DNA of 32,000 nt from Candidatus Saccharimonadota bacterium (GCA_002952755.1 CP025011.1:180001-212000); one strand, 5' to 3'. Counted from the first letter of the stretch, positions 8,758 to 31,014 are shown. Program-made: numbers and translations. Notes: generated by a model from the letters alone, not told the origin.

Positions 8758-8834
8758 GCGCCCGTAGCTCAGTGGATTAGAGTACTTGGCTTCGAACCAA
8801 GGGGTCGCAGGTTCGAATCCTGCCGGGCGTACCA
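8758..8834 (+). tRNA. tRNA-Arg (anticodon TCG), CCA encoded
   Basis: Manual cloverleaf. Acceptor stem GCGCCCG / CGGGCGT, D-arm GCTC-AGTGGATT-AGAG region, anticodon stem CTTGG / CCAAG with loop CTTCGAA, T-arm GCAGG-TTCGAAT-CCTGC, discriminator A, then CCA. Confidence 0.9.
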
Positions 8835-8884
8835 CGAAAAAAGAGCAAGCGACCTTTTAGGGTCGTTTTTTCGTGGTACGCCCG
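8825..8884 (+). terminator. Nested hairpin / terminator that includes the tRNA 3' end
   Basis: 19-bp perfect inverted repeat: CGGGCGTACCACGAAAAAA (8825-8843) and TTTTTTCGTGGTACGCCCG (8866-8884). It encloses a small hairpin, CGACC-TTTTAG-GGTCG, that is followed by a T6 run. Confidence 0.6.
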
Positions 8885-8989
8885 GGCCCCATTCTATCTT
8901 TGGTTTGCATACAGGCGAGACAGCAGAGCATTCTTCTTGCCCTTACAAAGGTTTGGGCATAGGCAGGCTGAGGTCCCTCATGGACTGTA

Positions 8990-10390
8990 TCACTCCTGCA
9001 CATGCATTGAATCATAGAGCGTAAGCAAAATGCTGGCGAGTTGGCCTCGGATAAGTTGCTGTGGCTTAACGAGCTTCGGGGCGGCTATCTGCTCGATCTT
9101 CGTTGCATTATCGTGAATGATGGCATGTAGCTCATCCGCTACGGCTCTGTTTTTAGTGTGCACAGCGAGACGATGTGTCATGCCAATAGCCACACTTCCA
9201 TAGAAAAAGCTTGTTAGTGCAGTGTTTATCAGCACAGCGCGGGACACCTCTCTTTTACTCATCGCCTCCCTTGACTTGAGAGGTAGTATGCTTTCCCATG
9301 TCTTTGCTAGGGGCAGTGCTTGATCTGCGATTAATTGATGTGACGGGTCGAGCGATGAGAGATCGAGTTTATCCCAATAGTCTAACGTGCGTCTTATGTT
9401 GTATAGACTTTCTCTCAGCATATCACTGAGTGTTTTTCTTGACTCACCTGGCATATGATCGACTGCGCTGATCTGCGGGACGGCGAAGTGTGCGGCTTCA
9501 AGCATAACGCCCCTTACCCGTTTGTTAGCCTCCTCGCCGATTTTTTGCGCGTAGCCGATTGACTGGCGTCCCGGCGGGCTCATAGCGGAGGCTTTACTCT
9601 CTCCATACTGCTCGGCATTGTAGTCGTACCATTCTTCAAATGTAGGCAGTTGGTATACACCTTTTGTAAGTTCACGCGCCATTGGCAAGTCGCCCGTGCC
9701 CGAGAGTGGCAGGTCAGGGGCTACTATCAGCAATGAGTTTTTGAGCGACCGCGCGAGAGCGAACGATGTCCCGCTTACGTACGCAGCCTGCCCACCTATG
9801 GAGGCGTTGTGTCCAGAGAAGACTACGTCCGGAAGTCGGTGAGCAATAATATCCATGCTCGCTCGTGTCGCGGGAAGCGGATGGTTCTGAGCCGCTTCCC
9901 TATACTCTACGGGATAAGTGTGATCTACCACTTGGTCACTACGGAATGTACCTAAGAGGCAATCCTCGATTGAGGGATTAGGTAAACCAGTCCAGGTATT
10001 CAATTGGGAAGTGGCAGGATGAGCGTCGAAGAAGCTAATCGCACTGCAGCCGAGTTGTTGCAATAACCGTGTGGTCGTTGCAACGCGAAGTAATTCTTGG
10101 GCTGTATTGACGGCCACCTTCTCATTTTCGTCAACATTCATTTTTACATATAAAACGCCATCACCCTTGGGGTCAGGAAGTTCTATAGTGCAGGATTCAA
10201 AATTTTTTGTGCTACCGTCAAGATCGGTATATGTATGATCAGTAGGCTCGACAGAGAGCACAGCGCCCTCTTCTCCTGGATCTTGACCCTTGAACCACTC
10301 TGAAAATCCTCCTAACTCGTAGTGAGGGTAGTCAGGAACACTCATCACTGCCTCCGCAATGCGGGGAATATCCGCTCCATGATTTGTCAT
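8990..10390 (-). CDS. Hypothetical protein (466 aa), no recognisable family
   Basis: Long uninterrupted ORF with protein-like composition. No signal peptide or TM helix, and no motif I can assign. Confidence 0.6.
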   Translation of the reverse strand: MTNHGADIPRIAEAVMSVPDYPHYELGGFSEWFKGQDPGEEGAVLSVEPTDHTYTDLDGSTKNFESCTIELPDPKGDGVLYVKMNVDENEKVAVNTAQELLRVATTTRLLQQLGCSAISFFDAHPATSQLNTWTGLPNPSIEDCLLGTFRSDQVVDHTYPVEYREAAQNHPLPATRASMDIIAHRLPDVVFSGHNASIGGQAAYVSGTSFALARSLKNSLLIVAPDLPLSGTGDLPMARELTKGVYQLPTFEEWYDYNAEQYGESKASAMSPPGRQSIGYAQKIGEEANKRVRGVMLEAAHFAVPQISAVDHMPGESRKTLSDMLRESLYNIRRTLDYWDKLDLSSLDPSHQLIADQALPLAKTWESILPLKSREAMSKREVSRAVLINTALTSFFYGSVAIGMTHRLAVHTKNRAVADELHAIIHDNATKIEQIAAPKLVKPQQLIRGQLASILLTLYDSMHVQE

Positions 10391-10579
10391 GCGGGCACTG
10401 TAGCAATTTTCTTGTTTAGTAACAAGCTGGCTAAGAAAGAGGGGGGGTTCGGCAGGAGGTATAGCAGGCTTTTTGATTTACTCAAGGGCAAGGCAACCGC
10501 TGCTATAACGAATCACGATTTTTACCGAAGCTGTTCGGTAATTGGGGAGGATGGTCGAGCCATTTGCTATACTCGACAT

Positions 10580-11592
<1,013 letters not shown>

Positions 11593-11721
11593 TAAAGTGG
11601 CCGCGAGCGGTGTCTGCTCGCCCTTGGCTATCTGTACATCCCGCTCAACCCTAAGTTAGGAGTTTTCAGTTCAATAGATAATAGATAGGTTGCTGTACGG
11701 AGATATCTATTCCTCATGATA

Positions 11722-12693
11722 TTAGTAAAAACGAGGCTGTCGGGGACCCAGGGCACCTACATACTGAATGACTTCAGCACATGCGTTGGCCGCGCTTTTT
11801 AAGATGTCTAATGAGTCCCAGCCCTGCAATAGGCCATGGACTGTGGCACCATAAGCACATTCACCGGCACCGGTGGTATCGACTATCCTTTTCGCTTTTA
11901 CCGCGGGGCAGGAAGCCACTTCTTTTACGCCTCTTTGTGCGAGACAGGCACCTTCGGCACCTCCGGTAACCAAGACGTTATCTGCGAACTGAGTACCCTC
12001 CAGGGCGTCCTTTTCTATCGATCCTCTGCCGAATAGCGCGTCGGCTTCTTTTTTATTCACAGCCAGCAGAAATAGTCTCCGTTCATCTAGCTTCCGCCGC
12101 ACTACTTCCGGATTTTTTATGGTCTCTGTGTGGCTCGGCGTATATGAGAGTTTGAGCCCCTCTTCCATCTGATACAGTAAATCCAAAAGAGCGAGTTTTC
12201 CTGAAGCTACCACTATATCTGCGCCTACCCCAATTTCGGGATCGAGATATTCCTCAATCGAGTCACGCTGACTCCCTCGTGAGGCACTGTCTCCGTGTGA
12301 AAAGAGGTCAATAACACAGCCGCCGACTACATGGTGAGGCTTTTTGATTACGTGGGATGTAAAAGGCAGGGCTGTCATTTGACGGTAAAAGATATCGCTC
12401 ACCGGATCGCCATCTTCGCCGATAACAGTGTAGGCGTGGACATCGTATGCGCCGGTGCGGGCCAGGTAATCAATAATGCCGACGCTTCCGCCACCAATGC
12501 ACACCGCTTCGTTCGTTAGTACGCCTTGTTCGTAGCTATTTAGTGCGCCGAAGAAAGCGGCCTGGTCGTTATCGTTCCATGCTGATTTAGTGCCGGCCCC
12601 GTCGTGTGCGTCGGGAGAGAATCTACAAACATCCAGCCCAGGACTCAACAGGCCGACAACCTTCGGTTTTGGCTCTAGAGATATCACGCTCAT
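11722..12693 (-). CDS. PfkB-family (ribokinase-like) carbohydrate kinase
   Basis: 323-aa ORF carrying the C-terminal PfkB signature VDTTGAGECAYGATVHGLLQG and an upstream GG-containing region. Substrate unknown. Confidence 0.75.
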   Translation of the reverse strand: MSVISLEPKPKVVGLLSPGLDVCRFSPDAHDGAGTKSAWNDNDQAAFFGALNSYEQGVLTNEAVCIGGGSVGIIDYLARTGAYDVHAYTVIGEDGDPVSDIFYRQMTALPFTSHVIKKPHHVVGGCVIDLFSHGDSASRGSQRDSIEEYLDPEIGVGADIVVASGKLALLDLLYQMEEGLKLSYTPSHTETIKNPEVVRRKLDERRLFLLAVNKKEADALFGRGSIEKDALEGTQFADNVLVTGGAEGACLAQRGVKEVASCPAVKAKRIVDTTGAGECAYGATVHGLLQGWDSLDILKSAANACAEVIQYVGALGPRQPRFY

Positions 12694-12787: not shown

Positions 12788-13525
12788 TTATTTTGTGCTA
12801 GCCTTGCCTTTTGCGGCGCGCGGCAGAATACCAAAGGTAAGCAAGAGAGCGTAGAGCACGGCAAAGCCGCACATGATGCTTGGGATGCCCGATATTGTCT
12901 TGGGGCTTAGATCGTTGACTATCCCGGTGGGAAGTACGAATATCAAAAAGCCAACGGCCTGCAGGATCAGCGCCTCGCGCTTTACGACCGAAGCGTTACT
13001 CGCATAATACAGCGCCAAACCAATGCCCATGAAGAGCCAGAAGTAGTAGTAACCGAAGTAGATACCACCTAAGTGTGGAGCTAACTGAAAGATGGCGTAA
13101 TTGCCGGCGCATACGTGGCTATGAAAGGCATGCCTGCCCAGGCCAAAGATCCCGGCAAATGATAGGCCGGAAAGATACGCCAGCCACACCGCTATTCGAG
13201 GCCCCCGGCCAGCAATGACGCGCACTAGATGAATGCCGAGCGGTGGCAGCATGGTAATGGCGATAAATCCGATGCGCGCCCACATACCAGCACCGTTGCC
13301 GTAGTCGCATACCCTAAATTCAGCGAGCTGAAAAATGGCCAGCAGGCCAAGTGTGGCGGTAGCTAGTCGTGTGAGTGTATTCATCTTATAGCGAAATACA
13401 GTGTAGACGAGCATGGCAGACTCGATGATGAAGGTAGCAATCATTACGGGTGGCGAAAAGCAGAAGAAGGTTGTGTCGTTCTTTTTCATTATCTTAAGCA
13501 TAACAAAAAAATGGCAAAACGGCAT
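12788..13525 (-). CDS. Polytopic integral membrane protein (about 7 TM), unknown function
   Basis: 245-aa hydrophobic ORF. The start is uncertain (ATG at 13525, 13501 or 13489). It lies 21 nt downstream of hairpin element copy 1. Confidence 0.65.
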   Translation of the reverse strand: MPFCHFFVMLKIMKKNDTTFFCFSPPVMIATFIIESAMLVYTVFRYKMNTLTRLATATLGLLAIFQLAEFRVCDYGNGAGMWARIGFIAITMLPPLGIHLVRVIAGRGPRIAVWLAYLSGLSFAGIFGLGRHAFHSHVCAGNYAIFQLAPHLGGIYFGYYYFWLFMGIGLALYYASNASVVKREALILQAVGFLIFVLPTGIVNDLSPKTISGIPSIMCGFAVLYALLLTFGILPRAAKGKASTK

Positions 13526-13546: not shown

Positions 13547-13653
13547 CACCCCTGCCTGCCCGTGCCCAAGTAGAGTCAGGCGTAGTGCAGCCAGACCGAC
13601 TTTTAGTCGGCCTGCGCGAAAACGCTCTACTTGGGCACGGGCAGGCAGGGGTG
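13547..13653 (-). repeat. Hairpin element copy 1: 29-bp perfect outer stem around a conserved 61-nt core
   Basis: CACCCCTGCCTGCCCGTGCCCAAGTAGAG (13547-13575) is the exact reverse complement of 13625-13653. The core (13570-13630) matches the reverse complement of 17854-17913 at 56 of 61 aligned positions. Confidence 0.9.
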
Positions 13654-13758: not shown

Positions 13759-15474
13759 ATGACACAAAAAGCGCGGACTCGATTCTGGGATACGCTTACG
13801 CATAGCCGTTTATCGCCAGACACTGGGCCCTACGGCCAAGCTTATGTCATCAATATGTACAGCTTGCTGGCTTTTTTGTCGCTTACGATTTTTGGCATAT
13901 TACATCTGACCGCCGATCATACACCGCGGATTGGCTATTTAGAGCTCGGCTGCGCTGCAGTTATGTTGCTGAATATCGGGTTGCTATATGCAAGTCAGGA
14001 TCTGGTAGTAGGCCGCACCATTTTATTGTCTACTATTATGGCCGGGTTAGTTGTGATGTTAGGGACGGGTGGCACCCAGGGTACGGGTATTTTTTGGTTT
14101 TTTGTATTTCCGGTGGGTGCCTTTTTTGTAGCGGGGAAGAAACAGGGTATGCGCTGGGTGATAGCCCTCTTTTTGGTAGTGCTCGCATTACTTGGGTTGG
14201 CGCAAGCCGATGTGGTCAATTTGTTTTATTCATTTATAACTATCAGGCAGTTGCTGGTGAGCCTAGCAGTGGTTGCAGCCGGGATATATGTATATGAGCG
14301 TTCGAGGGAGCAGCTCGAGCAACAGACACGCACCGACGAGCACGATTTACGCGAAGAGAAGGTTCTTGCTGGAACGATCTTAGAGAATATCGATGAGGGC
14401 GTCGTAGCTATAAACAAGCAAGGGCGGGTAATACTAATGAATCAGCCGGCCGAGCAAATGCTCGGTTGGAGCCGCGACGATTTGATGGGCAAGAAGTTCG
14501 TTGAGATGGTGCCATTGATTGATCATAAAGGTAAGCGGGTGAAATCAACCGACCGTCCGATACATCGGGCGTTGGAAGGCCCTATCGGTAATTTGTCGCT
14601 AACCTATGTGCGTAAGGATGGTAGCAAATTCCCGGTGGTTATGTCTGGCAGGTCAATTATGGTAGATGGTAAAGTGCAGGGCGCGATTGGTACGTTTCGC
14701 GATGTGACCGAGGAGCGGAATATTGACCGGGCCAAGACTGAATTTGTGACGCTAGCCTCACACCAGTTGCGGACGCCGCTATCGGCTATCGCCTGGTTTA
14801 GCGAGATGTTGTTGAATGGTGATGTGGGTAAACTGAGCGACGCCCAGCGCGAGCCGATCGAGCAGATTTATCACAGTAATCAACGTTCGGCAGCGATCGT
14901 TGACGCCATGCTGACCGTCTCCAACGTTGAGCTTGACAAGGTGACGGTGAGCCCTGAGGTTGTTGATCTCCCCGCACTCTGCCATAAGGTGCTGAATGAA
15001 GTGGGAAGTGCATTGCTGAGTGAAAAAGAGCTGCACATTCGTGAAGAGTACGCCCCTGACCTGTCGAACCTAAAGCTCGACCCTGCTCTTACGAAAACAA
15101 TGCTTCAAATTATTATCTCCAACGCGCTAAAATATACGCCAAACGGTGGTTCTGTAACGATTAAGATTCTAAAAAGCGCCGAAAAGCTTTCGCTTTCCAG
15201 TCGGGGTAGTGTGCGGATAGATGTGACCGACACTGGATATGGCGTCCCAAAAGCTGAACACAAGAAAATCTTTGAAAAACTCTTCAGGGGTACTAATATA
15301 AGATCAAAAGATACTGATGGGACAGGGTTGGGATTGTACATTGTGAAATCACTTTTGGAACAAGCGGGCGGGGTCATTCGATTTACATCTGAAGAAGATA
15401 AGGGCAGTACTTTTTCTATTGTGCTGCCCCTGGAAGGCATGAAGCGCAAAGGGCCGGGTACGGCTCATGTTTAG
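13759..15474 (+). CDS. PAS-domain sensor histidine kinase (membrane-bound)
   Basis: About 5 N-terminal TM helices, a PAS region (ILENIDEGVVAINKQGRVILMNQPAEQMLGW...), an H-box (LASHQLRTPLSAI) and HATPase_c motifs (ISNALKYTP...DTGYGVP...GTGLGLYIV). Confidence 0.92.
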   Translation: MTQKARTRFWDTLTHSRLSPDTGPYGQAYVINMYSLLAFLSLTIFGILHLTADHTPRIGYLELGCAAVMLLNIGLLYASQDLVVGRTILLSTIMAGLVVMLGTGGTQGTGIFWFFVFPVGAFFVAGKKQGMRWVIALFLVVLALLGLAQADVVNLFYSFITIRQLLVSLAVVAAGIYVYERSREQLEQQTRTDEHDLREEKVLAGTILENIDEGVVAINKQGRVILMNQPAEQMLGWSRDDLMGKKFVEMVPLIDHKGKRVKSTDRPIHRALEGPIGNLSLTYVRKDGSKFPVVMSGRSIMVDGKVQGAIGTFRDVTEERNIDRAKTEFVTLASHQLRTPLSAIAWFSEMLLNGDVGKLSDAQREPIEQIYHSNQRSAAIVDAMLTVSNVELDKVTVSPEVVDLPALCHKVLNEVGSALLSEKELHIREEYAPDLSNLKLDPALTKTMLQIIISNALKYTPNGGSVTIKILKSAEKLSLSSRGSVRIDVTDTGYGVPKAEHKKIFEKLFRGTNIRSKDTDGTGLGLYIVKSLLEQAGGVIRFTSEEDKGSTFSIVLPLEGMKRKGPGTAHV

Positions 15475-16954
15475 AAAAATGTCGCTGCAAGCCAAGATGA
15501 TATTCGCGTTTCTATCGTTAACGCTGCTCGTTGATGCCGGCAGCTACTATTTAATCCTCGTTTTGGATCACAGCAATAACCTCACATTGACAGCAGACCA
15601 TCTGACAGTATCGATAGCTACGTTTGCGGTTTTGGTCTCAGCTTTTGCGGTAGCGCTAGGGACATTTCTGGCAATTTGGCTTGGACGATCCATCTCAAAG
15701 CTGAAGGGTGGCGCCGAGCGGATCGCGGATGGAGACTTTTCGCGTCCAATTCCAGTGAATTCCGAGGATGATTTTGGCAAATTAGCACTGGCTTTTAACG
15801 CAATGGCGGAGCGTCACAAGGATGCCTATCGCCGCCTGGCTGTCGAGAGACAACGCGACGAGGCAATACTTCAGAGCATGAGTGAAGGTTTGCTAGCGGT
15901 AGACGAAAACGGAACAGTGGTGTTGGCCAACGATGTGGCGGTCGCCTTACTTGACCTCGAGAGTCAAGAAGCAGCAATTGGCAAAGACAGCAAAACTATT
16001 CTCAAACTCTATTCACAAAATGTGCAGGAAACCAAACCATTACCGCTCAAAGAACAGCCTGTGCATAGTGCGCTCTCTACCGGGCGTGCCGTCAGCGATA
16101 TATTCGCATTCCATAAAGTTAGCGGCGAGAAATTTCTGCTGAATGTGAGCGCCAATCCGATCCGCCTCGACGAAAAAACAATCGGAGCTATTTTAGTAGT
16201 CCGCGATGTGACGAAAGAGCGGGAAATAGACCGTATGAAAACCGAGTTCATCTCGCTCGCCTCACACCAATTGCGGACGCCGCTATCGGCCATTAAATGG
16301 TTTAGCGAGATGCTGCTCTCTGGCGACGCCGGTAAGCTCAAAGGCGATCAGGTTGATTTTGCACAGAATATTGCCGACTCTACTCAGCGTATGATCGAGT
16401 TGGTCAATTCATTGCTCAATATTTCACGTATCGAATCGGGCCGGATTATGGTAACGCCACAGCCGACCGACCTGAAGGAACTTGTGTCGGGTATTGTGAG
16501 CGACCTCAAGGGCAAAACTGAGCAGAAAAAGCAGTCGCTAGTGATTAGTGTCCATCAGGATTTGCCAAAGATTAAGCTCGATCCGCGCCTGATTGGCCAG
16601 GTGTACCTCAATCTATTGACCAATGCCATTAAATACACTCCCAAAGGCGGCGAGATCTCGGTATTTATCTCCCGTAAGGGCGACCAAGTAATTTCGCAGG
16701 TAACAGACAATGGGTACGGCATACCAAAAGATCAGCAGGACCGCGTGTTCCAGAAGTTCTTCCGTGCAGCTAATGCAGTAAAGGTGGAGACAGACGGCAC
16801 GGGCCTCGGGTTGTATCTTATTAAGGCGGTTATCGAATCGTCGGGCGGTAAGATATGGTTTGAGAGTGAGGAGGGGAAGGGAACGACATTTTGGTTTAGT
16901 ATTCCGATGAGTGGCATGAAGGCCAAGAAAGGTGAGGTGACGCTCGATGCATAG
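15467..16954 (+). CDS. HAMP/PAS sensor histidine kinase, paralog of the upstream HK
   Basis: Its start overlaps the upstream stop by 8 nt. Two TM helices, a HAMP-like region (IADGDFSRPIPVNSEDDFGKLALAFNAMAE), a PAS domain, the same H-box (LASHQLRTPLSAI) and HATPase_c motifs. Confidence 0.92.
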   Translation: MFRKMSLQAKMIFAFLSLTLLVDAGSYYLILVLDHSNNLTLTADHLTVSIATFAVLVSAFAVALGTFLAIWLGRSISKLKGGAERIADGDFSRPIPVNSEDDFGKLALAFNAMAERHKDAYRRLAVERQRDEAILQSMSEGLLAVDENGTVVLANDVAVALLDLESQEAAIGKDSKTILKLYSQNVQETKPLPLKEQPVHSALSTGRAVSDIFAFHKVSGEKFLLNVSANPIRLDEKTIGAILVVRDVTKEREIDRMKTEFISLASHQLRTPLSAIKWFSEMLLSGDAGKLKGDQVDFAQNIADSTQRMIELVNSLLNISRIESGRIMVTPQPTDLKELVSGIVSDLKGKTEQKKQSLVISVHQDLPKIKLDPRLIGQVYLNLLTNAIKYTPKGGEISVFISRKGDQVISQVTDNGYGIPKDQQDRVFQKFFRAANAVKVETDGTGLGLYLIKAVIESSGGKIWFESEEGKGTTFWFSIPMSGMKAKKGEVTLDA

Positions 16955-17020
16955 TAAGCCGCAACACCGGATCTCGTATATAAGGGGAGTAATGATAATG
17001 AGCGTGGTAGGATAAAACGT

Positions 17021-17455
17021 ATGTCAAAAGAAAGTCCAACGATAATGGTGGTAGAGGATGAGACCCTCCTGTTGCAGGCCATCACCAAGAAACTCAAGAT
17101 TAGCGGCATGGATGTGCTCTCCTGCGCCAGCGGGCAGCAAGCTATTGATTACCTTGATAGCCTTGATGAGCTGCCTGACGCCATCTGGCTGGATTATTAC
17201 CTGAAGGATATGAACGGCTTAGTGTTCATGGAACAGCTCAAAAAGAGCAAAAAATGGGCGGCCATTCCAGTGCTCGTAGTGAGCAATTCGGCCAGTCCGG
17301 ACAAAGTGCATAACATGCTTGCTCTGGGCGCCAAGAAGTATATTCTCAAGGCCGAGTACCGGTTGGATGAAATCATTGCCATGATCCGCGACTTTATTGC
17401 GGCGAATGGGCCAGACGGTGATACTCTTGGTAAGGAAGGTAAGAAGGAAAAATAA
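17021..17455 (+). CDS. Receiver-only (CheY-like) response regulator
   Basis: 144 aa with a single REC domain (IMVVEDE...IWLDYYLKDMNG...VVSNSASPD...KKYILK). No output domain. Confidence 0.88.
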   Translation: MSKESPTIMVVEDETLLLQAITKKLKISGMDVLSCASGQQAIDYLDSLDELPDAIWLDYYLKDMNGLVFMEQLKKSKKWAAIPVLVVSNSASPDKVHNMLALGAKKYILKAEYRLDEIIAMIRDFIAANGPDGDTLGKEGKKEK

Positions 17456-17820
17456 TGGCCGCTAGTTCCAAACAAGTCCTCATTGTAGAAGATGAAAAGC
17501 CGCTCGCCCATGCACTACAGCTCAAGCTGGAGCACGAAGGCTATGCCGTCACGGTTGCCAGTAATGGGCAAGAGTGCCTCGACCTCATCGATAGCCACAA
17601 GTTTGATGTGGTACTGCTCGATCTCATTATGCCGGTTATGGACGGTTTTCAGGTACTTGAGCAGCTAAAGTCCAAAAGCAATAAGCCAATCGTGTTTGTC
17701 CTGTCTAACCTCAGCCAGCATGAAGATGACGAGCGAGCCATCCGTTTGGGTGCCCGCAAATTCTTTATCAAGTCCGACACGCCGCTTACAACGATTGTTG
17801 AAGAGATTAAGAAGTTATAG
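17455..17820 (+). CDS. Receiver-only (CheY-like) response regulator
   Basis: 121 aa with a single REC domain (VLIVEDE...VLLDLIMPVMDG...VLSNLSQ...KFFIK). The ATG overlaps the upstream TAA (TAATG). Confidence 0.9.
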   Translation: MAASSKQVLIVEDEKPLAHALQLKLEHEGYAVTVASNGQECLDLIDSHKFDVVLLDLIMPVMDGFQVLEQLKSKSNKPIVFVLSNLSQHEDDERAIRLGARKFFIKSDTPLTTIVEEIKKL

Positions 17821-17832
17821 GCCCTAAGATAT

Positions 17833-17934
17833 AGCACTCTCCCGGGGCTTCAGGTAGAGCATTTCACGCAGGCCGACTAAAAGTCGGTCTGGCTGCACTT
17901 CGCTTGACTCTACCTGAAGCCCCGGGAGAGTGCT
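17833..17934 (+). repeat. Hairpin element copy 2: 27-bp perfect outer stem around the same conserved core
   Basis: AGCACTCTCCCGGGGCTTCAGGTAGAG (17833-17859) is the exact reverse complement of 17908-17934. The core (17854-17913) is shared with copy 1 in inverted orientation. Confidence 0.9.
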
Positions 17935-27828: not shown

Positions 27829-29448
27829 ATGAGGGCGCTCTGGGCATATCAAAAACGCTGGCGAACCGACTACAACTGGTACGCCTGGCTAGGCCTGACT
27901 ATACTACTCTGTTCTGCTATATGGTGGTCACTGTTGGGAGCATGGCAACAGCAAGGGAATGCCGATCAGCTGGCTGACGGCTTGTTGTTTGAACATAGTA
28001 AGAGCTTTGCTGGAGCCTTATTTCCTGCCTCACATACACTGCTGCTCAAGTGGCTAATTTTTCTGCTATTAGCCATGTTCCACAACGCCGCTCCCATCTA
28101 TGCGTGTATGACTATCTTGGTTGTTTTACTGAGCGTTACAGGGTTGGCGTATGGGCTGCACAGGATAGCATCTAACTCGTTGGTATTTGGTACGCTTTGC
28201 CTTGGGCTGGCTTGTGTATTGATCTTAGTACCGGCGCAACTCTTCCATGGACCTACGGCGCCGCTTAATATGGCGATGCTTACCGGCCGGAACGTTGAGT
28301 ATGTCGTCTATCTCGGCGTGCTCGTCCTCTATCTAAGGGCGCAGGCATATTGGAGCATACGCTGGACTACGGCAACGCTTGCATTGGCTGTACTGTTTGC
28401 CAGCGATCAGCTTTTTGTACCTTTGAGCATTGGTGGTGGCCTGCTCCTTATGGTGGTCACCGCTATTCACCGCTATCAATTACGTGATGTTGCTAAGCGC
28501 TGGCTATGGGGAACGGGTCTCGCCTGGATCTTGGCGCGTGTGCTTCTTTTGGCGCTAGGACGGCAGGTACATGTAATAGGCGATATTACCAGCCCATATG
28601 GATTTATTTCCAATTGGCACGAGCTATGGTCTGGCCTGCATTTCGCTGCTAAAGCGCTCTTGCTTAACTTAGGCATAACAAGGGCAGATGGTCCGTTAGC
28701 GATTATCCCTGCCGCGACTAATCTGATGGTAGGGGCAGCGATGGCGGCCGCGGGCACTATGGTCACGCGCCAGGTACTGCACAATCATGACGAGCCCACG
28801 TTAGCGGAAGGCCTGTCTCTCATGCTTGTCGCTAGTACGGCAGCAGCAATTATACTGTTTGTTTGTACTGATCACCCCTACGCTGCTGATGCGCGCTACC
28901 TGACGATCTCGTTATTCGCGGGTTTTGTCACACTTGCGACATACCTAAGGAGCGTCGAACTGGAGTCAAATATACTGTTGGCTGCTGGAGGCATACTCGC
29001 GCTGGCAATTATGTGCGGGCTTACCGCGCTCACTGGGCATATCCGCAGGGAGGTCGCGCACGATCCCCTTCGCCACCGCAATCAACTCGTCGCTCAAGCC
29101 TTGGCAAAACATCCCGAAGAAGTGTTAGTGGGGAATTACTGGCGCGTCTTACCTATCAAGGCCCTTACTGTGCATGCAGACCAGAATGTGATGCCTTTGC
29201 GCAGCTGTTTGCAAGCCAGCGAATCGCTACGGAGTATAACGTGGCAGCGAGATCTGCGACGGCATAGCTTCGCTTACTTGTTGTCGCTGCGCCCGGATGG
29301 CACTCCTTTTTCAGACTGTACTCTGCATACGGTGGAGTTCCGATACGGTAAACCGACGAGCTCGGCGATTATAGCAGGCAATCGGCGGAATCCTGAAGAA
29401 GTGTTGCTGTTTTACGACCGTGGAGCCGACGATACAGATAGGCTATAG
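27829..29448 (+). CDS. Large polytopic membrane protein (about 12 TM) with a soluble C-terminal region, unknown function
   Basis: 539-aa hydrophobic ORF. The topology recalls lipid-linked glycosyltransferases, but I see no diagnostic motif. Confidence 0.6.
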   Translation: MRALWAYQKRWRTDYNWYAWLGLTILLCSAIWWSLLGAWQQQGNADQLADGLLFEHSKSFAGALFPASHTLLLKWLIFLLLAMFHNAAPIYACMTILVVLLSVTGLAYGLHRIASNSLVFGTLCLGLACVLILVPAQLFHGPTAPLNMAMLTGRNVEYVVYLGVLVLYLRAQAYWSIRWTTATLALAVLFASDQLFVPLSIGGGLLLMVVTAIHRYQLRDVAKRWLWGTGLAWILARVLLLALGRQVHVIGDITSPYGFISNWHELWSGLHFAAKALLLNLGITRADGPLAIIPAATNLMVGAAMAAAGTMVTRQVLHNHDEPTLAEGLSLMLVASTAAAIILFVCTDHPYAADARYLTISLFAGFVTLATYLRSVELESNILLAAGGILALAIMCGLTALTGHIRREVAHDPLRHRNQLVAQALAKHPEEVLVGNYWRVLPIKALTVHADQNVMPLRSCLQASESLRSITWQRDLRRHSFAYLLSLRPDGTPFSDCTLHTVEFRYGKPTSSAIIAGNRRNPEEVLLFYDRGADDTDRL

Positions 29449-30933
29449 CGGTGTGCCGCCTAGCCCTGTACTGGGAGCGCCAACTGCGGGGCTGGCAATG
29501 CCAACGGGGTCAACAATGGTGCCATTTGCTGCACCGTCTTGGTCGAGTGGGCCACCATCTGTAATCTGATACGTTATTTTAGTGAGAGTCTGACCGCCAA
29601 TAGTTGCTGAGCTTACAATCGCTCCAGGGATCGTTTGATAGGTGTGTGTCGTAGTGTTGTACTTGCGTAGCACGAATGTGTTCGAATCTGCCAGGCCATA
29701 GTAGTAGAGGGTGACCGTTGCCGTTTGGCCATGCGCGGCACAGGTGAGGGTAAAGTTGGTTAATCCCTCTGGGTAGCTAAAAGCGGTATCTTTATAGCTA
29801 GCAGGCAGACTGCCAGTAGAGACGCCACTGTTGGCAGTACAGTCCGACTGCAACACCTGGTAGTTGTTGGTGATGGGGTTTACTAGGCTGGTTATTTGCC
29901 TTTGGTAGGTGTCGGTAATACCGTCGCCGTTAGCGTCCCCGTGATTCGGTCCATTCGACTCGGTAGCGTTCGCTATGCCGTCGCCGTCGTTATCATTACT
30001 AAAGATTTGCCAGGATGGCATGGAGGTGTCTTGCGTATCCGGTGTGATTGCTGTTTCATTGCTACCGTCGGTATTGATGCCATAGATGCGCTGGAAACTG
30101 CCGCCGCCAAAGCCATCATAAATCAGCTTCGTGCCATCCGGCGACCAGCCCACATTGCGATTGTCGTAATTAACGCTGGACAACGTATGCATATTGCTGC
30201 CATTAGCGTCCATAACCGTTAGATGGTGGTCGTAGGGGTGAATATTGGCAGTGAAGGCAATTTGCGTGCCATCCGGCGACCAGGCACCGGTATCGTGATC
30301 TTGAGCGTCAGACGTAAGAGCCGAAGGGCTTGCCCCGTCGGCATTCACCAGACAAAGCTGGTCGTAGGTGCCGTCCGGACAGGTATAGAGCAACTGCATT
30401 CCATTTGGGTTCCAGGCGGGTGACATGTCACCATTTGCACCGTTGGTAATCTTGGTGCGATTGCTGCCATTGGCATCCATCGTGTAAATGTAGCTTAGGC
30501 TGGAATTGTCATCGGCATGGGTGAACGCCAGCTTGGCGCCATCCGGCGACCACTTTGGCTCGATATTGAAGGTGTTGTCGCTAGTAAGGTTTACTTGGTC
30601 GGTGCCATCAGCGTACATAACGAAAATTTGTACATTGCCATCGTTATTCGGATCGGCAGCAAAGACTATCTTGCTTCCATCCGGCGACCAGGACGGCTCT
30701 ACGCTGCCAAAACTATTGTGTGTAAGCTGCTGCTCATCGGAACCGTCGGCGTTGCTCGAATATATCTGGGCGATTGAGGAATTATCGGCGTGCACGTACG
30801 CGATTCTGCCGTTACTGCTGCCATAGGCGTGACGGGGCTGCCGCTGTGTAAGGGCGGCAAAAGAAAGTATTACAATAACTCCCACCAGGAGCATTTTGTA
30901 CAGAATAGCTTTGTAGTTGGCTATTTTGCTCAT
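29443..30933 (-). CDS. Secreted PD40/TolB-like beta-propeller protein with Ca-binding-type Asp repeats and a C-terminal Ig-like domain
   Basis: Start preferred at ATG 30933 (MSKIANYK...), followed by a TM helix or signal peptide. Five or more W(S/N)PDG repeats, DNDGDGIANATE...DANGDGITD (thrombospondin-type-3-like), then a C-terminal ITDGGPLDQDGAANGTIVDPVG motif. Confidence 0.8.
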   Translation of the reverse strand: MSKIANYKAILYKMLLVGVIVILSFAALTQRQPRHAYGSSNGRIAYVHADNSSIAQIYSSNADGSDEQQLTHNSFGSVEPSWSPDGSKIVFAADPNNDGNVQIFVMYADGTDQVNLTSDNTFNIEPKWSPDGAKLAFTHADDNSSLSYIYTMDANGSNRTKITNGANGDMSPAWNPNGMQLLYTCPDGTYDQLCLVNADGASPSALTSDAQDHDTGAWSPDGTQIAFTANIHPYDHHLTVMDANGSNMHTLSSVNYDNRNVGWSPDGTKLIYDGFGGGSFQRIYGINTDGSNETAITPDTQDTSMPSWQIFSNDNDGDGIANATESNGPNHGDANGDGITDTYQRQITSLVNPITNNYQVLQSDCTANSGVSTGSLPASYKDTAFSYPEGLTNFTLTCAAHGQTATVTLYYYGLADSNTFVLRKYNTTTHTYQTIPGAIVSSATIGGQTLTKITYQITDGGPLDQDGAANGTIVDPVGIASPAVGAPSTGLGGTPL

Positions 30934-31014
30934 GCTTATATCTACTATACAGCCACAATCGCTCGTGAGTAAATGCGATCGTGACGAGTCTATCTGATGG
31001 CAGTGGTACGGCAA

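Follow-up and report, generated by a model that had tools for sequence, protein, structure and literature searches.

The analysed stretch of DNA (32,000 nt, in the following called the window) contains an operon for two PAS histidine kinases and two receiver-only response regulators, with a long hairpin on either side of it, referred to as copy 1 and copy 2. The coordinates are listed in Table 1. Copy 1 is located between divergent genes, ∼30 nt upstream of the promoter-like site of the minus-strand gene and 106 nt upstream of the start codon of the kinase operon. Copy 2 directly follows the operon: it starts 12 nt past the stop codon of the second response-regulator gene (17455-17820) and is the sole hairpin from this stop codon to the next gene. 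Homologues of the window proteins carry the names Candidatus Saccharimonadales or Saccharibacteria, and the nearest relative of the histidine kinase shares only 54% identity. Among the Pfam-annotated genes of the window none encodes a transposase, a recombinase or a reverse transcriptase.

Table 1. Positions of the two hairpin copies and of the adjacent features in the window
Feature	Position	Strand	Basis or remark
Promoter-like site TTGCCA-18-GATAAT of the divergent minus-strand gene	13488..13517	-	Promoter scan
Copy 1, left arm	13547..13575	.	Outer ∼19 bp site-specific; inner ∼10 bp (CCAAGTAGAG) belong to the semi-conserved inverted repeat
Copy 1, core (49 nt)	13576..13624	- (reference R orientation on the minus strand)	Covariance model R1, nhmmer
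Copy 1, inner imperfect stem-loop GTGCAGCCAGACCGAC-TTTTA-GTCGGCCTGCGC	13585..13617	.	Minimum-free-energy folds of both strands; family covariation
Copy 1, right arm	13625..13653	.	Complementarity to the left arm
Operon of two PAS histidine kinases and two receiver-only response regulators	13759..17820	+	Pfam; context, outside the element
Copy 2, left arm	17833..17859	.	27 nt, complementary to 17908-17934
Copy 2, core (48 nt)	17860..17907	+ (R orientation, inverted relative to copy 1)	R1, alignment to copy 1
Copy 2, right arm	17908..17934	.	Complementarity to the left arm

The arms of copy 1 are 29 nt long, 100% complementary and 49 nt apart, and those of copy 2 are 27 nt long, 100% complementary and 48 nt apart. 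The pattern GTAGAG-N48/49-CTCTAC occurs exactly 2 times in the window compared to 0.07 occurrences expected from shuffles. Aligned to the reverse complement of copy 2, copy 1 is identical at 56 of the 61 positions (4 substitutions and 1 indel). Outside GTAGAG the stems continue for 23 and 21 bp, respectively, and the similarity between them does not exceed a chance match of 4 nt. The positions of the copies, the 56 matches, the stem lengths outside GTAGAG and the perfect pairing had been given in an earlier note on this DNA, and we obtained the same values when we recomputed them. The conserved part reaches ∼4 nt deeper into the arms (YCARGTAGAG). We folded both copies on either strand and observed z-scores of −10 to −12 relative to shuffled sequence, with 0 of 200 shuffles folding as well. 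Overall the window has five perfect stems of at least 12 bp, where ∼0.1 would be expected per shuffled window. Under covariance model R1 the core of copy 1 reached 62.2 bits on the minus strand (E = 6.7e-13; nhmmer E = 2.3e-17) and the core of copy 2 reached 55.3 bits on the plus strand (E = 3.6e-11).

We also recorded several other characteristics of the window. In the relatives L139, L140 and L142 the HK-HK-REC(-REC) operon adjoins type IV pilus genes (T2SSE, T2SSF, pilins). This linkage is broken in the window and copy 2 is located at the break. A direct repeat of 150 nt (14698-14847 and 16202-16351, 73% identity) reflects the paralogy of the adjacent histidine kinases, and four 41-nt repeats spaced 135-270 nt apart at 30109-30692 are the PD40 beta-propeller repeats of gene 29443-31014. 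An NAD-dependent epimerase/dehydratase is divided into two overlapping ORFs (10322-11017 and 10900-11592), which hold the N- and C-terminal halves of the Pfam domain. As L144, an independent Logan assembly, has the same two genes (11383-12021 and 12048-12596), the split or frameshift seems to be real and not a sequencing error.

Distribution of the family

A search with nhmmer retrieved 13 members: two in the window, one each in L064, L079 and L122, five in L147 and three in L158. The covariance model returned the same members and 0 additional diverged copies. The earlier note had proposed a search for further copies, which do exist, and its description of the element as having two copies has to be replaced by one of 13 members and two variants (L158 6799-6928 with a larger apical domain and L147 14852-14952 with a different centre), spread over the window and the five further loci L064, L079, L122, L147 and L158. 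The syntenic rpsB...greA-lysS...secA region of the relatives was obtained through the LysRS orthologues of L122. The highest number was encountered in L147 with five copies in 21.6 kb. Pattern scans built from the inner stem of the window copies are narrow, since they describe the sub-type of the window only; they found true copies exclusively in the Saccharibacteria contigs L064, L079 and L122, and 62 of 65 and 68 of 70 matches were due to chance, mostly in high-GC coding sequence.

All 13 copies are intergenic and they occur in both orientations. In L147, where every gene is on the plus strand, two copies are in plus and three in minus orientation. The neighbouring genes are unrelated among copies (greA/lysS, proS, hpf/secA, glutaredoxin/atpI) and apart from the element the copy-bearing loci show no similarity to the window. 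Members are absent from L148 and L159, for which the same 15-21 kb were compared, and from the Saccharimonadales loci L139, L140 and L142. BLAST and three patterns detected no member in collections of phages, plasmids and viruses; all 17 viral matches to GTCYGGYTGCAYTTCGCC were chance matches with the similarity confined to the pattern itself. We considered whether the arms are spacer-like copies of viral DNA and rejected this, as viral contigs contain no exact match to either of the two window arms tried. Near the copies, the Pfam-annotated genes of the loci include no transposase, recombinase or reverse transcriptase. The searchable literature holds no description resembling the family, which is apparently undescribed.

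The Logan unitigs L136, L137 and L144, taken from public assemblies covering the window, end inside the cores at window positions 13599 and 17896. They break there because the two copies share an identical stretch of more than 31 nt in reverse complement, and the family therefore fragments assemblies with k=31.

The position of the two window copies could suggest a discrete small RNA gene or a riboswitch-like cis-regulator of the histidine-kinase operon, with copy 1 106 nt upstream of the start codon, copy 2 directly after the operon and a very stable fold in both. The orthologous operons of three relatives have no copy, however, other members adjoin unrelated genes, and the two window copies are oppositely oriented. 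The Rfam scan proposed in the earlier note reported only tRNAs at gathering score for the window and the five copy-bearing loci; at E ≤ 10 copy 1 matched only animal miRNA precursor models, sub-threshold and on both strands, because it is a long hairpin. The note had found no match to a known RNA, REP, MITE or attC family, and Rfam and our feature tests bear this out. Its suggestion of a discrete RNA of ∼100 nt fits less well with the mixed orientation relative to genes and with copies that lie upstream of both neighbouring promoters. The distribution of the family has already largely refuted a small RNA gene or riboswitch, and we give this explanation almost no credence. Because it is absent from the three orthologous operons (L139, L140, L142), we also rejected the element as a conserved part of the histidine-kinase operon.

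Core, inner helix and arms

Each member consists of three layers: an asymmetric core of 48-52 nt, a semi-conserved inverted repeat of ∼10 bp (TTCAGGAGAG / CTCTCCTGAA) around it, and locus-specific arms of 15-20 bp on the outside. In R orientation the consensus starts with TTCAGGAGAG, enters the core with CGTTTTCAC and GCGGGC, continues with 4-5 variable bp, a loop of 4-6 nt and again 4-5 bp, and leaves the core through GTCCGGTTGC and ACTTCGCCCTGA before CTCTCCTGAA. The best-conserved letters are those of the unpaired strands beside the inner helix (CGTTTTCAC and ACTTCGCCCTGA). GTAGAG was observed in the two window copies only; the other members have GGAGAC, AGAGAA or GGAGAG at this place. The most similar pair of copies at different sites is the window pair with 88-92%.

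The inner helix of the core (9-11 pairs) is real. On the R strand 93-95% of the cells are paired, and the pairing dropped to 16-58% of the cells when the 3' partners were slid by 1-3 columns. The upper half covaries freely, five pairs are changed in both partners and none of 500 shuffles reached the observed score. RNAalifold independently predicted the same helix. At columns 14/34 a G.T wobble is retained on the R strand in 10 of the 13 copies, and the R strand is more stable than its complement in 10 of the 13, a mild preference with a mean difference of 1.9 kcal/mol.

The structure-preserving covariation asked for in the earlier note was detected in the inner stem-loop and did not extend to the outer helix, where the note had read the wholesale compensatory change as the signature of a selected structure. 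Summed over all copies, the arm pairs comprise 324 Watson-Crick pairs, 5 G.T pairs and 8 mismatches, and more than half of those that are not Watson-Crick come from one decayed copy (L147a and L158a are decayed). Arms that are nearly purely Watson-Crick, specific to their site and, as described below, the frame within which the core flips in orthologs do not carry an RNA-type signature. The arm mismatches show no strand bias. The total arm length is 25-31 bp in 12 of the 13 copies, and the inverted repeat is perfect in L079 and has one or two mismatches in L122 and L064. Outer arms are unrelated among the copies of one genome, both in the window and in L147. We found no direct target-site duplication in the 12-nt flanks of 12 copies and no promoter-like site inside the cores. 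The intrinsic-terminator scan returned nothing at either window copy; the spacers measure 48-52 nt and no T-run follows the arms.

The two variants deserve a separate description. The element at L147 14852-14952, located between divergent ABC-transporter and msrA genes, has the same architecture with perfect site-specific arms of 23 bp and a 55-nt centre with a separate perfect 12-bp hairpin inside; the end of the element (...GCGCCCTAGA) is similar to the ...TCGCCCTGA of the family. The element at L158 6799-6928, in the Rce1-proS spacer, was missed by both the HMM and the covariance model. Its 27-bp arms are orthologous to those of L147b and its 76-nt centre retains the outer core motifs CGTTCACGCG ... 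CTACTTCGGCTTAAG around a larger and different apical domain.

Several of these properties would also suit an RNA element serving the host. Transcribed together with the end of the upstream gene, its long duplex would terminate transcription, protect the 3' end or be cut by RNase III, a protein would bind the apical core, and the pairing of the stems would be preserved by selection for RNA structure. At eight of the 11 occupied sites the element follows a stop codon at a distance of 2-14 nt or comes directly behind a terminator, with the next promoter downstream of it, and copy 2 provides the only hairpin behind its operon. The inner helix covaries with alternation of G.U and A-U and is paired at 93-95% on the R strand, and in 10 of 13 copies this strand is more stable than F. 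The arms of 25-31 bp have a duplex length that suits RNase III, the enzyme by which Correia elements are processed. The orientation relative to the upstream gene is mixed, however, with ∼7 R to 4 F, and flips between orthologs, so that about one transcript in two would contain the conserved core as its complement. Little transcription is expected between divergent promoters, which is where copy 1 and the L064/L079 copy are located. In addition, the arms are nearly without G.U, no T-run follows the hairpins, greA has its own canonical terminator ahead of the element and there are relatives without the element at the same sites. We consider a host-serving RNA element possible but unlikely.

Inversion of the core, arm maintenance and occupancy

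The loci L064 and L079 are 96% identical over 7.2 kb. In their alignment the flanks match plus-to-minus and the core matches plus-to-plus; as flanks and core align in opposite senses, the centre has been flipped between identical arms. A second case was observed at the level of motifs at site b (the Rce1-proS spacer), where L147 and L158 have common arms and oppositely oriented core motifs. Compared in this way, the orthologous loci show that the core inverts between its arms over evolutionary time. An assembly artefact is an unlikely source of the L064/L079 flip because the perfect arm of L064 measures only 19 bp and arms of at most 30 bp are below the final k that assemblers usually reach. 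Unitigs from two independent samples run at least 26 nt into the cores in the orientation of the window and show no branch at the junction of arm and core, which indicates that flipping is not frequent within those populations.

With orthologs carrying the core both ways between identical arms and a conserved inverted repeat right at the core boundary, one could think of a programmed inverton, in which a recombinase would act on TTCAGGAGAG / CTCTCCTGAA, flip the core and toggle the expression of a neighbour. The invertible segment would measure only 48-52 bp, though, and known invertons are far longer. There is no promoter-like site within the core and no recombinase gene in any locus examined, and the unitigs of the two samples are unbranched at the junction. 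Moreover, long inverted repeats with short spacers flip spontaneously (PMC6824564). A programmed switch is in our judgement very improbable.

The arms themselves change in a coordinated manner. At site c (between greA and lysS) L122 and L147 have common arms with two fully compensated pairs (A-T to G-C and G-C to A-T) and two uncompensated sites, and their cores are 62% identical, like those of different sub-types, despite the common arms. At site b the outer GGCGACTACC is common to L147 and L158; beyond it the two differ by substitutions and an indel, each of which appears in mirrored form in the opposite arm, such that both elements are perfect. The cores of L147 are only 59-78% alike, and 4 of the 5 arm pairs in this locus are perfect or have a single G.T. 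Divergent cores with perfect arms indicate that the arms are maintained and not merely young; judged from these comparisons, recent insertion alone cannot account for their perfection.

We then compared the occupancy of the shared region, in which L122 has one copy, L147 five and L158 three, with none in the outgroups L148 and L159. A tree of four proteins groups L122, L147 and L158 against L148 and L159. All three spacers occupied in L158 are occupied in L147 too, and the arms are unrelated at sites a, c and d; the sharing of spacers is explained equally well by repeated insertion and by elements that are old, inherited vertically and possibly functional. No presence/absence polymorphism was seen among near-identical strains, with 10 of 10 L148-type contigs empty.

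Two empty sites show a single sequence similar to an arm. In the empty site b of L122, GGTGGTCGCC is located exactly 9 nt before the conserved proS promoter, at the position where L147 and L158 have the outer right arm GGTAGTCGCC. In the empty site c of L148, AGTTTGG directly follows the greA terminator, where the left arms of L122 and L147 begin. These are weak matches: 2 of 22 pairs of arm and empty site reached p ≤ 0.03 (p ∼0.006-0.03, uncorrected, 44 tests), a level that does not withstand correction for multiple testing. A single arm-like copy fits an inverted target duplication or the stump of an asymmetric excision, which has been reported for REPINs (PMC3116915).

Next to site b we noticed a proS leader of ∼110 nt (L147 8000-8130) that is conserved in L122, L147, L158, L148 and L159. 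It has an extended −10 (TGCTACAAT) as well as a CCCGCCTCGGCGG hairpin with a T-rich run behind it, an arrangement reminiscent of an attenuator, and it has no Rfam match at E ≤ 1.

The position of the copies also has to be considered in view of a DNA site of the host, that is a cruciform or hairpin recognised at transcription-unit boundaries by a chromosome-organising, replication or repair protein. Such a site would be independent of orientation, and the copies are strictly intergenic, regularly at operon boundaries, and combine a conserved core with sequence-free arms of constant length. In addition, with copies of ∼110 bp as dense as one per 4 kb, the family would presumably be a burden for a ∼1-Mb genome unless it is useful. 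On the other hand, no copy occurs in the corresponding 15-21 kb of the sister lineages L148 and L159, nor in L139, L140 and L142, the occupancy varies from 1 to 5 among close relatives, two copies (L147a and L158a) have decayed and there is no candidate protein. We regard a host DNA site as distinctly improbable.

Long palindromes in these genomes are not restricted to the family. The window contains three further long perfect hairpins with unrelated centres of 20-23 nt (2152-2219, 2282-2327 and 8823-8885). The last is a perfect 20-bp inverted repeat beside the tRNA gene 8758-8831. Its left arm consists of the 3' acceptor end of the tRNA, CCA and CGAAAAAA, its right arm is the exact inverted copy, and its 23-nt centre holds the small terminator hairpin of the tRNA (CGACC-TTTTAG-GGTCG). 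Here the second arm must be a copy of a pre-existing functional sequence. The hairpins at 2152-2219 (24-bp arms) and 2282-2327 (13-bp arms) are located downstream of an MFS transporter gene and have 20-nt centres; the former is an A/T-tract terminator whose palindrome reaches 16 bp past the tracts. Ordinary terminators of L148 likewise form perfect palindromes of 14-18 bp that reach past their A/T tracts. These observations point to a general process at the DNA level that would perfect and extend inverted repeats in these genomes. As a separate observation, the terminator hairpin of the tRNA resembles the apical stem-loop CCGAC-TTTTA-GTCGG of the window cores.

Origin of the family and comparison with known systems

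The explanation we favour, with about as much doubt as confidence, is that the hairpins are multi-copy intergenic palindromic repeats of soil Saccharibacteria (Saccharimonadales) and represent selfish, REP- or MITE-like DNA, not an RNA gene. We read them at the DNA level because the core is inverted between orthologs, the arm differences are mirrored and the occupancy is patchy with empty outgroups. A unit of ∼70 nt would spread to new intergenic sites, possibly as a single-stranded hairpin of the better-folding strand. At each site, template switching within the palindrome or recombination between the arms would flip the centre and copy one arm onto the other, by which the arms would stay perfect, and it would probably extend the inverted repeat into the local flank and in this way give rise to the site-specific outer arms. 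Any effect at the RNA level would be secondary: copies that mostly lie 2-14 nt past a stop codon would place a very stable 3'-UTR hairpin (−74 to −90 kcal/mol) on the 3' end of the upstream mRNA. The earlier note had offered two readings, a selected RNA or DNA structure and a small element that inserts into or generates palindromes. The latter, which it favoured less, fits better than a discrete RNA of ∼100 nt.

Several observations count against a selfish DNA element. No mobilising enzyme was found near the copies and no target-site duplication, no near-identical pair at different sites proves recent transposition, and among near-identical strains there is no presence/absence polymorphism. 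The narrow range of the arm length (25-31 bp) is not predicted by random arm extension, and the support for an origin of the arms from the local flank consists of the two weak matches at empty sites (p ∼0.006-0.03 before correction, 44 tests). Furthermore the covariation of the inner helix, the conserved unpaired strands and the strand-biased fold are expected of a selected, protein-bound single-stranded structure, which could serve the host.

It is also conceivable, although we think it quite unlikely, that the family is a new type of mobile element whose insertion chemistry itself makes the arms as an inverted target duplication of fixed length (∼15-20 bp). Hairpin-primed or strand-switching synthesis would then generate this inverted duplication in place of the direct target duplication of all known transposons, and transposition would act on the R strand of the core, folded as a single strand and bound by a putative protein. 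Arms of constant length (25-31 bp) that contain Watson-Crick pairs only, empty sites with one arm-like copy and the strand-biased fold of the core are compatible with such an element and none of them is proof.

Saccharibacteria are ultra-small epibionts with genomes of ∼1 Mb that are thought to be poor in repetitive DNA. Palindromic repeats were not expected in this phylum, and a dispersed family with a density of up to one copy per ∼4 kb in some lineages and no copy in their sisters would be a notable exception. The family could serve as a marker of strains and lineages, would explain breaks in assemblies such as those of the Logan unitigs within the cores, and would supply substrates for recombination and inversion. 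It would also offer a natural experiment on how palindromes arise, flip and retain their perfection when the repair capacity of a genome is reduced.

Of the known repeats, the Correia-type MITEs of Neisseria are ∼100-150 bp long, intergenic and bounded by terminal inverted repeats of ∼26 bp. Their transcripts fold into hairpins that can be cleaved by RNase III, and the expression of neighbouring genes is affected. Our family shares the intergenic location, the similar size and the long terminal inverted repeats, and it would likewise form hairpins in transcripts. However, the terminal repeats of a MITE are identical in all copies and flanked by a direct target duplication, whereas here only the inner ∼10 bp of the repeat are shared, the termini are site-specific and there is no target duplication. 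Invertons such as the fimS-type invertible promoters and the Bacteroides switches comprise hundreds of bp, carry a promoter and need a nearby recombinase. The family resembles them in that the segment between inverted repeats was found both ways (L064 vs L079, and L147b vs L158b at the level of motifs), but the segment is not hundreds of bp long, the cores have no promoter and the loci have no recombinase gene. The attC sites of integrons have conserved outer R''/R' boxes (RYYYAAC / GTTRRRY) and a variable centre; the family shows the opposite arrangement without GTTRRRY at the arm ends. Intrinsic terminators consist of a G+C-rich stem, a short loop and a T-run, whereas the family has a spacer of 48-52 nt and no T-run.

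In plastids, loop inversions associated with hairpins are well known (PMC6824564). As in our case, close relatives carry a short spacer one way or the other within the same stem, and the flip takes place without a dedicated recombinase; these are single unrelated hairpins, though, whereas the Saccharibacteria family is dispersed and has a conserved structured spacer. Template-switch mutations extend and perfect inverted repeats (PMC3820800, PMC7202029). By this quasipalindrome mechanism one arm is copied onto the other, which would yield perfect arms with Watson-Crick pairs only and mirrored changes as in the family. It has been described as a hotspot mechanism in E. coli and yeast reporters but not as a process that shapes a whole repeat family.

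Together with MITEs that have long terminal inverted repeats, the closest likeness is to REP sequences and REPINs, which are mobilised by RAYT (Y1) transposases (PMC3116915, PMC3337134). Both are short, non-coding, multi-copy, strictly extragenic and found in either orientation; both have predicted hairpins in ssDNA or mRNA, commonly show compensated changes in the stem and are long-lived in their lineages. REPINs are mobile, fold into hairpins with compensated stems and can be excised asymmetrically (PMC3116915), and site b of L122 may show the same excision that leaves part of one end behind. Among the Pfam-annotated genes in ∼215 kb of Saccharibacteria DNA examined there is no RAYT (Y1 transposase) gene. 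REPs have GTAG as the foot tetranucleotide, whereas our family has no family-wide GTAG and shows GTAGAG in the window sub-type only. The stems of REP and REPIN are conserved among the copies of a genome, in contrast to the unrelated outer arms and the variable upper inner stem observed here. Finally, a REPIN has invariant ends (the REP 16-mers) and a variable spacer, and relative to it the Saccharibacteria family is inside-out, with a conserved centre and outer 15-20 bp that are unique to each site. This layout, unlike that of REP, REPIN, MITE or attC, points to a new mobilisation mechanism or a new hairpin-binding protein.
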